NCBI RefSeq assembly: GCF_041248615.1
Contig: NZ_CP158426.1
Source: Escherichia coli
Lineage (GTDB): Bacteria; Pseudomonadota; Gammaproteobacteria; Enterobacterales; Enterobacteriaceae
Strand: one strand, 5' to 3'
DNA: 64,000 bases
Made by a program: the position numbers and the translations under genes. Below, one piece after another: positions 931-2,720 of this stretch; position 1 is the first letter of the stretch; the number at the start of each line of letters is the position of its first letter. The notes beneath the pieces are model-generated. The model was not told the origin of the DNA. It worked only from the letters and a program-made list of their open reading frames with translations, and ran no database searches.

Positions 931-1581
931 TTATGAAGGTTGTGCAAATGCGGGGGAATCTGCTGAACTGTGCTTTCTGAGCTGGCCTGCTACGGGATAC
1001 CAGGGATTACCGGCGAGGTAACGGGCTTCCGGATCGCGCACACCACGACGATCGCGGGCGAAATCACTGAACGCCCATATCAACTCTTTGAGGATGTCTT
1101 CGCAGTCCGGTGAACGACTGTCCAGCACCACATCCCGTGTTATCTGTTTCTGGTACGGTGCCGCTTCACCCGGTGACGCGAAGCCCAGTACGTTGCTCCA
1201 GGCATCCAGAATCAGCCGGTCCAGTTCAGGGCCATCGAAATACTCCTGTCTGACGCACAGCACCACGTGGTATTCCGGCTTTTCAGGATGACGGGTTAGG
1301 ATCCAGCAGAGATCACGTCCGGGGGTTGCATTCATCAGCGCACTGACGGTTTCGATAAAATCCATGCCTAACCAGGTCTTTCTGCAACTGAAGGCGTTGT
1401 CATGTTCCCACGGCAGACGAAGCAGGATCCGCCGTACCCGGGAGCAGGACTGTTCACGCAGCGCACGATTGAGAACGCCGACGATTTTGTTCTGATAAGA
1501 TGGCCAGAAGGGTGCCATGCTATAGTCGAAATAAGGGATAGCATTCATAAGATATGCTCCATATGGAAACACACGACGCAT
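931..1581 (-). CDS. YagK/YfjJ-family (inovirus Gp2-like) island protein
   Basis: 216-aa ORF, ATG start; the PEYHVVLCV block and overall layout resemble YfjJ/YagK of E. coli CP4 cryptic prophages. Family recalled from memory. Confidence 0.45.
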   Translation of the reverse strand: MRRVFPYGAYLMNAIPYFDYSMAPFWPSYQNKIVGVLNRALREQSCSRVRRILLRLPWEHDNAFSCRKTWLGMDFIETVSALMNATPGRDLCWILTRHPEKPEYHVVLCVRQEYFDGPELDRLILDAWSNVLGFASPGEAAPYQKQITRDVVLDSRSPDCEDILKELIWAFSDFARDRRGVRDPEARYLAGNPWYPVAGQLRKHSSADSPAFAQPS

Positions 1582-1722
1582 CCCCGCCAGCGAAAGACGA
1601 GCGTATGGTGAAACTGAAGGCGTCGTGTACTGAGGTTGTTGATGTGATAACCGTGGAACCGGGGATGGCAGATGTCGTATGCCAGGACAGTCAGGAGACC
1701 AGACAGGTGTAAAATTCCTGAG

Positions 1723-1790
1723 GTGGTGATCTCCGTTGACTTCGGTTCACATCATTAATCATCCCGGTAAGTTTTTACCGACGGATTGTT
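1723..1790. repeat. conserved ~60-bp element upstream of the yfjJ-like paralog at 931-1581 (copy 1)
   Basis: GATCTCCGTTGAC..CACATCATTAATCATCCCGGTAAG closely matches the sequence at 2652-2720 upstream of the second paralog. Confidence 0.6.
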
Positions 1791-1919
1791 TCCAGGAGCG
1801 GAAGCAGATAAAAATACCGTTTCATGACTTCAGGGCGATTAGCAGAAAACGATCTAAGGGCGTTGGCTGACGCCCTTACCGTGACATACACTCTGGTACC
1901 GGATGCCGTTTTACAGGGC

Positions 1920-2651
1920 TCACCTGCCATCCAGCAGACGCCCCGGCCCACGACTGCAACCATAATTACGTTGCCCGGAACCGTCATGCTGCTTCGTCTC
2001 ATATTTCACGAGATAACTGGCTCTGTTCCGGGCTTTCTGCATCGCTTCCACATCACCACGCTTGACCCAGAGCACAGCGGATTCACCCGGCTTTTTGTCT
2101 GAAGCCTTCCTAGTTTCAGAACATCCACCCGACAAAGGCGTATCATCGGAAGAAGGGCGAGCATCAGATGATGTCGGTTTACGGAAAGGCGTCCGCCTGG
2201 AAAAATGAACCAGTCCATTACCCTGCCAGGGCTCAAGATGCAGAGCACTACACCATGCCAGTTGGATCAGCGTCGCCAGCGAAGAAGGAACGGTGAAATC
2301 CCCTGGCGAGCACCAGGTATCTTTGTTGAGCAGTAATATCACGTGATAATGTTTCCTGCCTTTTTCCTTGCCAAACTCCCGACACCAGAAATAACGCAGA
2401 GTGGTTGCACGCACACGCTTGTTGGCACGTCGTTTATGTCGCTGGTAAGCCTGAATTTTTGCTTTCAGGGATGCAAAAAAACGAGAAATCACCGCTGAAT
2501 CTAAATCGGTATCCATGATGGTGGCAGGCATATACTCAGGGAAACGTAAATCCACCCGGATTAACGAGACGGCACGGTGCTGCGCCAGGGCACTGTTGAG
2601 AATACTTTCAAAACGGGATAACCAGTAAGCATTGTGTATTGGTTGATTCAT
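1920..2651 (-). CDS. YfjJ/YagK-family (inovirus Gp2-like) island protein, second paralog
   Basis: 243-aa ORF starting MNQPIHNAYWLSRFE with the HYHVILLLNKDTW block typical of this family. The C-terminal ~60 aa are low-complexity, so the real 3' end is uncertain. Confidence 0.5.
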   Translation of the reverse strand: MNQPIHNAYWLSRFESILNSALAQHRAVSLIRVDLRFPEYMPATIMDTDLDSAVISRFFASLKAKIQAYQRHKRRANKRVRATTLRYFWCREFGKEKGRKHYHVILLLNKDTWCSPGDFTVPSSLATLIQLAWCSALHLEPWQGNGLVHFSRRTPFRKPTSSDARPSSDDTPLSGGCSETRKASDKKPGESAVLWVKRGDVEAMQKARNRASYLVKYETKQHDGSGQRNYGCSRGPGRLLDGR

Positions 2652-2720
2652 GATGAGAGATCTCCGTTGATTTGGATTGACTTCACATCATTAATCACTG
2701 CGGTAAAACTTTACGGCATC
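2652..2720. repeat. conserved ~60-bp element upstream of the yfjJ-like paralog at 1920-2651 (copy 2)
   Basis: GATCTCCGTTGATTTGGATTGACTTCACATCATTAATCACTGCGGTAAAACTTTACGG; shares the CACATCATTAATCA core with copy 1. Confidence 0.6.

Follow-up and report, generated by a model that had tools for sequence, protein, structure and literature searches.

A near-invariant element ahead of two YagK/YfjJ-type genes in an Escherichia coli genomic island: a candidate mRNA leader

Why should two neighbouring genes of an Escherichia coli genomic island each be preceded by the same short sequence? The question arose from a preliminary description of a 64,000-nt stretch of E. coli DNA (the window), which suggested either an ancient tandem duplication of a gene together with its operator or a shared regulatory site. 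Genes and elements alike are on the minus strand; "upstream" therefore refers to higher coordinates, as in the preliminary description. The module begins with gene A (1920-2651), which encodes a 243-aa YagK/YfjJ (inovirus Gp2, HUH Rep-like) protein and has element copy 2 (2641-2717) as its 5' leader. A terminator-like hairpin (1855-1878), with a 9-bp stem followed by GATCGTTTTC, lies directly 3' of the gene A stop codon. The intergenic region then contains element copy 1 (1727-1806) and a non-coding spacer (1549-1726), and is followed by gene 1 (931-1548), which encodes a divergent YagK/YfjJ paralog of 205 aa, and by an AlpA-like gene (674-907) as the last gene of the module, encoding a helix-turn-helix protein of the excisionase/antiterminator family (PF05930, 2e-10).

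We found this module in about 1,900 E. coli genomes, and it is essentially restricted to E. coli; the synteny of the AlpA-like gene was kept in all nine E. coli loci inspected. A species-level genome scan for a wider distribution returned a single Enterobacteriaceae MAG only, the element pattern was present on one IMG/VR contig, and the only phage-record match to the module was weak and partial (11% of the query, 67% identity). In 81 of 102 metagenomic contigs, gene 1 and copy 1 sit behind a different YagK-type gene of 188 aa that lacks copy 2, and the two-copy layout of the window is thus a minority arrangement. The terminator-like hairpin occurs in some contigs with a 243- or 214-aa gene A and in no contig with the 188-aa type.

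Gene A is clearly a member of the YagK/YfjJ family. Its sequence matches PF11726 with 125.4 bits against a cut-off of 25.8 (E 2.8e-36) and PF23343 (REP_ORF2-G2P) with 40.7 bits against 27.8 (E 3e-10), and PGAP annotates it as an "inovirus Gp2 family protein". The motifs HYHVILL (HUH) and YLVK (YxxK) are intact and align with those of K-12 YagK and YfjJ (HYHICL/HYHLIL and DYLTK/DYMTK). The best PDB matches of its AlphaFold model (pLDDT 77) are the nuclease domains of AAV Rep and parvovirus NS1, both weak (E 0.012, TM 0.29). Gene 1 had been assigned to the same Gp2-like family, but it is not an obvious member: it has no Pfam match, and PF11726 is absent even at E <= 10. On profile and transitive evidence only, it is a distant paralog of gene A, at about 20% identity. 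An hhalign comparison with the YagK family gave a probability of 90.4% (E 1.4e-6, 116 columns), and phmmer linked gene 1 to the protein P0188 (E 2.8e-16, 35% identity), which in turn matches PF11726 (1.4e-10, 41.8 bits). Gene 1 has EYH in place of HYH, and DFAR lies opposite YLVK in a C-terminal alignment of low confidence; with the HUH motif altered and the YxxK tyrosine not aligned, the protein is probably catalytically inactive. Its structure model (pLDDT 42) was unusable. The gene 1 family is restricted to E. coli, and we found no functional study of YagK/YfjJ in the literature.

The claim that the same element precedes each gene is borne out by pairwise alignment. The two copies are homologous, with about 80% identity over about 65 nt and one 5-nt indel. 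They share an exact 16-mer, TGATTAATGATGTGAA (1746-1761 in copy 1 and 2682-2697 in copy 2), and an exact 12-mer, TCAACGGAGATC (1728-1739 and 2659-2670), both unique to the two copies within the 64 kb; for the 16-mer these remain the only two matches even at two or fewer mismatches, against 0.05 expected. A small hairpin stands ahead of the core in both copies, formed by CGGTAA-N4-TTACCG in copy 1 (1765-1780) and by GCCGTAAA and TTTACCGC in copy 2 (2700-2717). The similarity stops about 15 nt beyond GGAGATC, and further on the local-alignment score of 20-24 equals the shuffled background of 21 +/- 3. A profile built from 44 natural variants found only these two sites in the window (E 1e-19 and 2e-17), and in about 1 Mb of island DNA the element is restricted to the same two contexts, with 110 and 33 occurrences.

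Within the element, a 32-nt core is about fourfold less diverse than its flanks (pi 0.023 versus 0.096-0.135, computed window-wise; codon-position diversity of gene 1 was spoiled by alignment indels). This level of conservation exceeds the need of a hairpin arm and, taken with the weak covariation described below, is not explained by base pairing alone. An Rfam covariance-model search of positions 1-6000 returned only two chance-level matches, both off the element (E 0.1 and 0.85), and the element sequence is not mentioned in any relevant paper. The proposed ancient duplication of a gene plus its operator does not agree with these data, given elements that are four-fifths identical and near-invariant across alleles and proteins that share only a fifth of their residues. 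Such a disparity implies either strong constraint on the element or copying or conversion well after the genes diverged. "Shared regulatory site", in contrast, is still the best general description.

The preliminary description placed the element about 0-150 bp upstream of each gene. This holds for copy 2, which abuts gene A: the Shine-Dalgarno sequence GGAG (2662-2665) is followed by 10 nt and the ATG at 2651. Copy 2 thus forms the 5' UTR of gene A. It supplies the gene's Shine-Dalgarno sequence and also contains the hairpin P2 (2700-2717), the core (2682-2697) and a core-complementary arm that includes the ATG (2644-2658), a composition that does not by itself mark it as an operator. Complementarity between the invariant core, GAUUAAUGAUGUGAAG, and the region of the start codon, UCUCAUCAUGAAUC, allows the leader to form a hairpin (-16 to -22 kcal/mol) in which the Shine-Dalgarno sequence and the AUG are both buried. 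In the window, the core is predicted to pair with UCUCAUCAUGAAUCA, with the Shine-Dalgarno sequence paired too (dG -16.5 kcal/mol, z -2.3, with 4 of 200 shuffles doing as well); the GATGTG of the core has UCAUCAUG as its counterpart in this pairing, and the 100-nt gene A leader folds with z -2.8. Copy 2 therefore has both an arm complementary to the Shine-Dalgarno and start region and a predicted stability above chance, two of the marks of a leader that sequesters its ribosome-binding site.

Natural variation in copy 2 is slight. The stretch is nearly invariant among 22 natural variants, every one of which keeps a hairpin (-13.7 to -22.1 kcal/mol). In one haplotype, two changes (GCGGTGATTAATG to GCGTTGATGAATG) give a new pairing with the AUCAAC of codons 2-4, and in another, GATTCATG, an A.G mismatch facing the AUG becomes a C-G pair. 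Since the stem is essentially invariant, covariation speaks neither for nor against the pairing, and since the antisense strand folds equally well (z -3.4), folding does not single out the strand that matters. The leader of the 188-aa gene A, unrelated in sequence, is likewise predicted to bury its Shine-Dalgarno sequence and AUG (z -3.4). Start-region hairpins were also predicted for two distant family members and were not significant.

Copy 1 is arranged differently. It consists of a 5' extension, GCTTCCGCTCCTGGAAACAATCCGT (1781-1805), the hairpin P2 (1765-1780), the core (1746-1761) and GAACCGAAGTCAACGGAGATC (1728-1748), and it is set off from gene 1 by 150-200 nt of non-coding spacer and so does not directly precede that gene: 179 nt separate its end from the annotated gene 1 start (1548), and 146 nt separate it from the first ATG of the open reading frame (1581). 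At the probable position of the former start codon, the common allele reads CTGAA, and the window has lost the position altogether, its spacer being a minority allele with a private 12-nt deletion. An AGG in the window copy was considered as a substitute for the ATG and rejected, the relic being removed by this deletion. In 188-aa-type modules copy 1 starts about 14 nt past the stop codon of the upstream gene, and there it would be transcribed as intercistronic RNA.

The spacer itself was considered as coding sequence. An open frame reaches from copy 1 to gene 1 in both the window and S88, which could have indicated an N-terminal extension or a leader peptide. However, among 54 alleles the open stretch measures anywhere from 12 to 67 codons, alleles differ in their frame with respect to the element, and indels of 1, 4, 12, 13 and 14 nt occur, so the spacer is non-coding. 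Its derivation from a decayed 5' coding region of gene A was also rejected, with a downstream-only alignment score equal to that of shuffled sequences.

For most E. coli alleles, folding pairs the copy 1 core with an inverted and degenerate copy of it that lies farther downstream (z about -4). The common allele reaches dG -35.7 and z -4.1, with none of 200 shuffles as good, and 29 of 40 unique alleles have z below -2, while the other 11 show no advantage over shuffles. For the window allele, z is -2.9 on the segment from the core to its partner and only -0.46 over 171 nt with the spacer; within its spacer, 1689-1700 (GGUCUCCUGACU) and 1641-1653 (CGGUUAUCACAUC) are each complementary to the element. 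The 5' arm of this pairing is invariant, and the 3' arm varies without compensation. Almost all changes in the outer helix leave a standard or wobble pair, with a single C.A in 54, and one helix pair is distributed as CG 20, UA 12, UG 19 and CA 3 among 54 unique leaders, a highly recombinant sample whose members are not independent.

Taken together, these observations lead us to favour, tentatively and at slightly short of an even chance, an mRNA leader common to both genes that regulates translation in cis and may double as a binding site. The two elements would be homologous copies of a cis-acting leader, acting on the sense (minus-strand) mRNA of the island module. At gene A, the hairpin would hold translation low until it is opened or bypassed. 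Copy 1 would be the same leader moved into the untranslated region ahead of gene 1, its start-codon position decayed, with the core serving as the 5' arm of a long imperfect hairpin whose inverted, degenerate partner lies 50-100 nt downstream. For gene 1 and alpA, the probable consequence of this long hairpin is an effect on processing, stability or read-through. That the 32-nt core hardly varies in either context suggests recognition by a common trans factor as well, and a module-encoded protein, or an RNA, may bind the core and so couple expression of the two parts.

Comparable leaders are found in mobile elements. RBS-sequestering hairpins silence transposase genes in the "fold-back inhibition" of IS10 and in the IS200 tnpA leader, and IS200 TnpA is itself an HUH enzyme. 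As in those leaders, the gene A leader has an upstream segment complementary to the Shine-Dalgarno sequence and AUG of a gene encoding a mobile-element DNA-processing enzyme, with a further hairpin upstream, and the expected effect is very low expression. Unlike those leaders, with which it has no sequence similarity, the present element belongs to a genomic-island module and not to an IS, it is twofold with the second copy off the start codon, and its core is over-conserved for a simple anti-RBS arm. Able to fold back over the ribosome-binding site and start codon of gene A, the leader would most likely be an undescribed but conventional on/off translation switch. If the element is only an RBS-occluding leader, it would be a routine addition to a well-known regulatory class.

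An unlikely alternative treats the element as an operator or iteron in double-stranded DNA, with its core bound by the AlpA-like winged-helix protein, by the probably inactive gene 1 protein or by the gene A protein. The bound protein would then control gene A and gene 1-alpA jointly at the transcriptional level, through autoregulation or antitermination loading. The low diversity of the core, invariant where its hairpin partners vary, would suit such a site, as would the short direct repeats that the core holds (ATGAT-TA-ATGAT, and GTGAAC/GTCAAC 10 nt apart). Repeats of this kind are typical of excisionase-family or Rep iteron sites. In addition, the 10-mer TTAATGATGT recurs inverted about 25 nt upstream of the start in the unrelated 188-aa gene A leader, at 68 such loci compared with 2 background matches in about 1 Mb, and this independence of orientation fits a DNA site better than an RNA site. 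Pairing in trans between the copy 1 core and that leader was rejected, as the duplex energy did not surpass that of shuffles (p 0.3-0.5); of the resemblance between the two, the 10-mer match alone stands.

The AlpA-like gene of the module gives the operator proposal a possible ligand. The Pseudomonas AlpA-family protein works through a specific DNA element (PMC7969949), which in P. aeruginosa is GGGACG-N5-GGTA between the -35 and -10 of the target promoter (PMC7969949). As with the AlpA regulators of P. aeruginosa and of E. coli CP4-57, an AlpA-family gene is present here and is preceded by a terminator-like hairpin, which stands ahead of copy 1, and by structured leaders, features that would fit control by antitermination. 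The E. coli protein is, however, only a family-level relative, and the published element is absent, with no match at two or fewer mismatches in 1-6000 and window-wide counts at chance. No promoter-like hexamers are recognisable in or around either copy: a sigma-70-like scan of both strands found none in or beside them, manual sigma-70 candidates, including an antisense TTGATT-17-ATTAAT, were rejected as not common to both copies, and none of the sigma-54, FliA-like and IHF-like matches checked by eye was convincing. Copy 2 overlaps a ribosome-binding site and not a recognisable promoter, and a protein site would leave the extended complementarity to the start codon and spacer unexplained.

It is also conceivable, though we consider it improbable, that copy 1 is a relic, a leader and start codon acquired from a gene A-like gene by copying or conversion and since decayed. 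Copy 2 alone would then be functional, and the similarity would reflect recent copying and recombination among E. coli islands. The lost start codon (CTG in the common allele, deleted in the window), the non-coding spacer with its many indels and the strongly mosaic alleles are all in keeping with decay. The excess of element over protein identity suggests later copying, and limitation of the element to E. coli and one Enterobacteriaceae MAG indicates a shallow history. Nevertheless, a neutral relic should vary no less than the spacer does, and the copy 1 core, through the Shine-Dalgarno-like GGAG, is the least variable non-coding stretch (pi 0.023 versus 0.096 for the spacer). Copy 1 was present in 110 of 110 gene 1 loci, and the loci for its diversity were gathered through an anchor in gene 1 and not through the element. 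When the whole intergenic region served as query, the alignment stopped at the end of the element in about 1,500 of the 1,878 E. coli records that matched. Two unrelated spacer alleles, including the very different window type, each retain complementarity to the element, which a relic would not lead one to expect and which is compatible with the favoured reading as an mRNA leader.

In E. coli and Pseudomonas, many genomic islands have a YagK/YfjJ ("inovirus Gp2-like") gene beside alpA, and a Gp2-like gene with an AlpA gene recurs as a core pair of mobile islands (PMC12595487). We considered that the core might be a recognition site of the Rep-like YagK/YfjJ proteins, either an origin or nick site or an iteron-type site read by the probably inactive paralog; this is very unlikely. 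In its specific form, in which gene A nicks the hairpin or core at an origin with binding repeats for rolling-circle replication of the excised island, and the two direct copies act as start and stop sites around gene A, the proposal has attractions. Gene A belongs to PF11726/PF23343 with HUH and YxxK intact, its best structural matches are origin-binding HUH nuclease domains, the element sequence is invariant, and a hairpin followed by short direct repeats lies just upstream of the rep-like gene. The latter is the classical layout of an origin, and the hairpin, repeats and strong conservation recall the origins and iterons of pMV158-type plasmids, CRESS-DNA and parvovirus Rep systems. Unlike in those systems, the element overlaps a ribosome-binding site and is missing from most relatives of the protein, and no conserved nick motif was found with the Rep gene across the family, the hairpin loop being short and variable (AAAC, AACC, AATC, AGTT) and hence without one.

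The origin proposal thus appears highly doubtful: the structural match to HUH domains is weak, the 188-aa Rep-like gene that is the majority partner of copy 1 has no element upstream, gene 1, the constant companion of copy 1, appears to lack the catalytic residues, no hybrid or deletion products between the copies were seen among 143 occurrences, and K-12 yagK, yfjJ and homologs from other species also lack the element. The K-12 genes yagK (CP4-6) and yfjJ (CP4-57) are otherwise close comparators, being of gene A's family (32-33% identity) and in the same kind of P4-like island, with alpA near yfjJ in CP4-57; the gene order there is alpA-yfjI-yfjJ, compared with gene A-gene 1-alpA here. An occurrence of TGATTAATGA upstream of a rep-like gene in another species (locus L006) was dropped because background was similar (4 non-element matches per about 1 Mb).

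A sharply bounded, near-invariant element found only ahead of two members of this family offers an experimental handle, both as a candidate translational switch that silences a Rep-like nuclease and as a candidate binding site for module proteins. Should the core prove to be a Rep-like recognition site, the module would be a replication and control cassette with which a large class of E. coli islands replicates once excised, and the YagK/YfjJ family would gain a function and a testable DNA substrate. Upstream of copy 2 there is also an extra hairpin, GCCATTGGCGTTGCTCAATGGC (2723-2744, minus strand), which is absent from copy 1; other alleles keep this hairpin in a different form, GCATTGCTCAATGC.

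We confirmed that two genes in the window each carry the same conserved upstream element, as the preliminary description had claimed, and both the coordinates and the motifs it reported were correct. The copies, which lie at 2641-2717 (copy 2) and 1727-1806 (copy 1) on the minus strand, align over ~65 nt with ~80% identity and one 5-nt indel. They share an exact 16-mer core, TGATTAATGATGTGAA (1746-1761 and 2682-2697), and an exact GGAG-containing 12-mer, TCAACGGAGATC (1728-1739 and 2659-2670), and each has a short hairpin at its 5' side (CGGTAAAAACTTACCG and GCCGTAAAGTTTTACCGC). 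Similarity of the upstream regions ended ~15 nt past GGAGATC, beyond which it equalled shuffled sequence. No further TGATTAATGATGTGAA site with up to 2 mismatches was found in the 64 kb (0.05 expected), and a profile built from 44 natural variants recovered just these two sites in the window (E 1e-19 and 2e-17). On this alignment evidence the two elements are homologous.

The core is conserved to an unusual degree. Diversity (pi) was 0.023 over the 32-nt core-to-GGAGATCA stretch, compared with 0.096 in the spacer before gene 1 and 0.135 in the 5' part of the element; windows within gene 1 ranged from 0.01 to 0.17. This constraint exceeds what a hairpin arm needs and suggests that something else also reads the sequence. 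The core also holds a mini-frame, AUG-AUG-UGA (1749-1757 and 2685-2693, minus strand), which is AUA-AUG-UGA in some alleles, and no consistent Shine-Dalgarno sequence precedes it among the alleles.

Gene A (2651..1920, minus strand, 243 aa), which follows copy 2, is by its domain matches a solid member of the YagK/YfjJ family (PF11726, 2.8e-36; PF23343 REP_ORF2-G2P, 3e-10). It carries HYHVILL (HUH) and YLVK (YxxK) motifs, as in Rep-type nucleases, and looks like an intact HUH enzyme. The top PDB matches of its AlphaFold model (pLDDT 77) were the nuclease domains of AAV Rep and parvovirus NS1, both weak (E 0.012, TM 0.29). We found no functional study of YagK/YfjJ in the literature. Gene 1 (1548..931, minus strand, 205 aa) is annotated by PGAP as hypothetical and had no match in Pfam or NCBIfam. 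Its proposed paralogy with gene A is real but very distant: BLASTP between the two was marginal (E 0.027), profile-profile comparison against an alignment of 21 YagK members gave a probability of 90% (E 1.4e-6, 116 columns), and an exhaustive phmmer search with gene 1 reached the homolog P0188 (E 2.8e-16, 35% identity), which scores 41.8 bits on PF11726 and whose gene adjoins AlpA-type and Rep-type genes. Because EYH replaces HUH and the YxxK tyrosine is unaligned, gene 1 is best read as a catalytically degenerate YagK/YfjJ paralog. The idea of an ancient duplication of a gene plus its operator was not supported in that form, as similarity between the elements far exceeds that between the genes and copy 1 is not adjacent to gene 1.

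The close family of gene 1 was found in E. coli only. Its C-terminus (931-990) differs by allele, giving 190-191 aa in P0004 and P0008 and 205 aa in the window; truncation or frameshift affects many database entries, and the allele of locus L019 starts with GTG. In other bacteria, one locus has two tandem YagK/YfjJ-family genes right behind an AlpA gene (L008, 3328-4588) and another has an AlpA gene flanked by Rep-like and YagK-like genes (L006, 1140-4573), so that tandem or paired YagK paralogs beside alpA recur outside E. coli.

Copy 2 continues directly into gene A (GGAG, 10 nt, ATG), and its sequence marks it as the putative leader of that gene, containing the Shine-Dalgarno sequence as well as an arm that complements the start codon. 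The core is the 5' arm of an inverted repeat; the 3' arm is UCUCAUCAUGAAUCA, which comprises the start codon and its flanks. The predicted RNA hairpin pairs the AU of AUG and all four Shine-Dalgarno bases (dG -16.5 kcal/mol, z -2.3; z -2.8 for the 100-nt leader), and folding of the antisense strand is equally good. Among 22 unique natural gene A leaders the stretch from core to ATG is almost invariant and sequence further upstream is freely variable. In one haplotype two changes, GCGGTGATTAATG to GCGTTGATGAATG, allow new pairing with AUCAAC (codons 2-4; -20.7 kcal/mol), and in another, GATTCATG, the A.G mismatch facing AUG becomes a C-G pair (-22.1 kcal/mol).

Copy 1 was compared in nine E. 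coli loci and 102 metagenomic contigs, the latter fetched via a gene 1 start anchor and not via the element. All have the order YagK-type gene, element, spacer of 150-200 nt, gene 1, alpA. Copy 1 is in untranslated sequence between the two genes, where for most alleles it supplies the 5' side of a long hairpin. A coding role for the spacer was rejected, given indels of 1, 4, 12, 13 and 14 nt and in-frame open lengths of 12-67 codons. The site homologous to the start of gene A reads CTGAA in the common allele and was removed in the window by a private 12-nt deletion. In the common allele the core and GAACYGAAGUCAACGG pair with a degenerate element copy in inverted orientation that lies 50-75 nt downstream, CCGUUCUGCUUCRGUUCUUCACUUAUUCCAUCAA (dG -35.7 kcal/mol, z -4.1; 0/200 shuffles as good). 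The 5' end of the element also pairs, as an outer helix, with CGGGCAGGACGC immediately ahead of the ribosome-binding site of gene 1, and changes in this helix are nearly all wobble-compatible. Unique alleles, which are strongly recombinant and non-independent, had z < -2 in 29 of 40 cases. A single pair covaries (CG 20, UA 12, UG 19, CA 3); the 5' arm is invariant, and the 3' arm varies uncompensated in 11/40 alleles. The window spacer (1549..1726) is a minority allele (5/54 unique leaders, about 50% different) with two segments complementary to the element, GGUCUCCUGACU (1689-1700) and CGGUUAUCACAUC (1641-1653); its fold is at chance over 171 nt (z -0.46), with z -2.9 for the core-to-partner segment.

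PGAP places a 49-aa hypothetical protein, WP_001385640.1, inside this spacer (1563-1712, plus strand); the frame is missing from other spacer alleles and is therefore probably a spurious call. Directly past the gene A stop lies a terminator-like hairpin (1855-1878, minus strand; 9-bp stem, then GATCGTTTTC), through which expression of gene 1 and alpA would depend on read-through. Some contigs with the 243/214-aa gene A have this hairpin, and no contig with the 188-aa type does.

Two contexts are specific for the element. When ~1 Mb of related island DNA was searched with up to 1 mismatch, 110 core matches lay before gene 1 and 33 before the 243/214-aa gene A, with 2 further matches by chance. 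No copy precedes K-12 yagK, K-12 yfjJ or the 188-aa YagK-type gene found ahead of copy 1 in 81/102 contigs, and the YagK loci of other species have none. The leader of the 188-aa gene, unrelated to the element, is likewise predicted to bury its own Shine-Dalgarno sequence and AUG (z -3.4). It holds the core 10-mer TTAATGATGT inverted, as the exact reverse complement ACATCATTAA, ~25 nt before ATG (L005, 4340-4420, and 68 other loci; 2 background matches in ~1 Mb); duplex-energy tests of pairing in trans were not significant. A one-genome-per-species scan found the element solely in one Enterobacteriaceae MAG, IMG/VR on one contig, and phage records gave a single weak partial match to the module of gene A, element, spacer, gene 1 and alpA. 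Rfam had no match, and the literature no relevant mention of the sequence. As a cis element it is of a familiar kind, undescribed so far and restricted to E. coli.

Our preferred reading, held tentatively, is an element acting at the mRNA level. Copy 2 would be a translational off-switch for gene A, by analogy with IS10 and IS200, which have fold-back or RBS-sequestering hairpins; copy 1 would provide a structured leader before gene 1-alpA that could govern processing, stability or read-through; and the core would probably be read by a common factor. A double-stranded operator or iteron for AlpA-like or Rep-like proteins is less likely, although core invariance, short direct repeats at 10-nt spacing and the inverted 10-mer in the 188-aa gene leader are all in its favour, as neither a nearby promoter nor a Pseudomonas-type AlpA element was found. 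The earlier suggestion of a shared regulatory site was reasonable, but nothing identifies the element as an operator. That copy 1 is a decaying relic is improbable, its low diversity contradicting decay. A Rep origin or nick site would suit the seemingly intact HUH enzyme of gene A and is the most doubtful possibility, given a variable hairpin loop, an element missing from most relatives and no recombinant products between the two copies. The finding would carry more weight only if the core were a DNA substrate or binding site of Rep-like proteins.

The region is a mosaic genomic island. Positions 600-3700 are 100% identical to several E. coli chromosomes (e.g. NZ_LT599825), and parts of them are present in 2,712/5,426 complete E. 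coli genomes, often in several copies per genome. Gene A, gene 1, both element copies and alpA, an AlpA-like HTH gene by Pfam (907..674) directly after gene 1, are all on the minus strand. Neighbours annotated by PGAP include IS3 elements, a YeeP-like GTPase gene, a WYL-domain gene, PTS/transketolase genes and a ProQ/FinO pseudogene. The ProQ/FinO-family gene lies ~1 kb past alpA on the opposite strand and is a pseudogene in both L001 (7723-8231, just left of the window start) and L009 (4950-5464); an RNA chaperone gene beside strongly structured leaders may be relevant.

Upstream of gene A, ~1.4 kb (2720-4110) is without a credible ORF, and S88 has a gene-free stretch of similar length there (L004, 2727-4180). 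The plus strand of 2700-3400 is A+C-rich with strong skew (GC about -0.3, AT about +0.35), which makes the gene A sense strand G+U-rich; G+C is about 30% in 3400-4100, and a short tandem repeat (TATAATACGTA x 2.7) occupies 3577-3606 in the AT-rich region. Further upstream, in 4115-5017 and 5036-6309, an IS3-family element with two overlapping ORFs and a programmed frameshift sits inside a low-G+C hypothetical gene, whose remnants at 4115-4990 and about 6321-6674 are partial according to PGAP.
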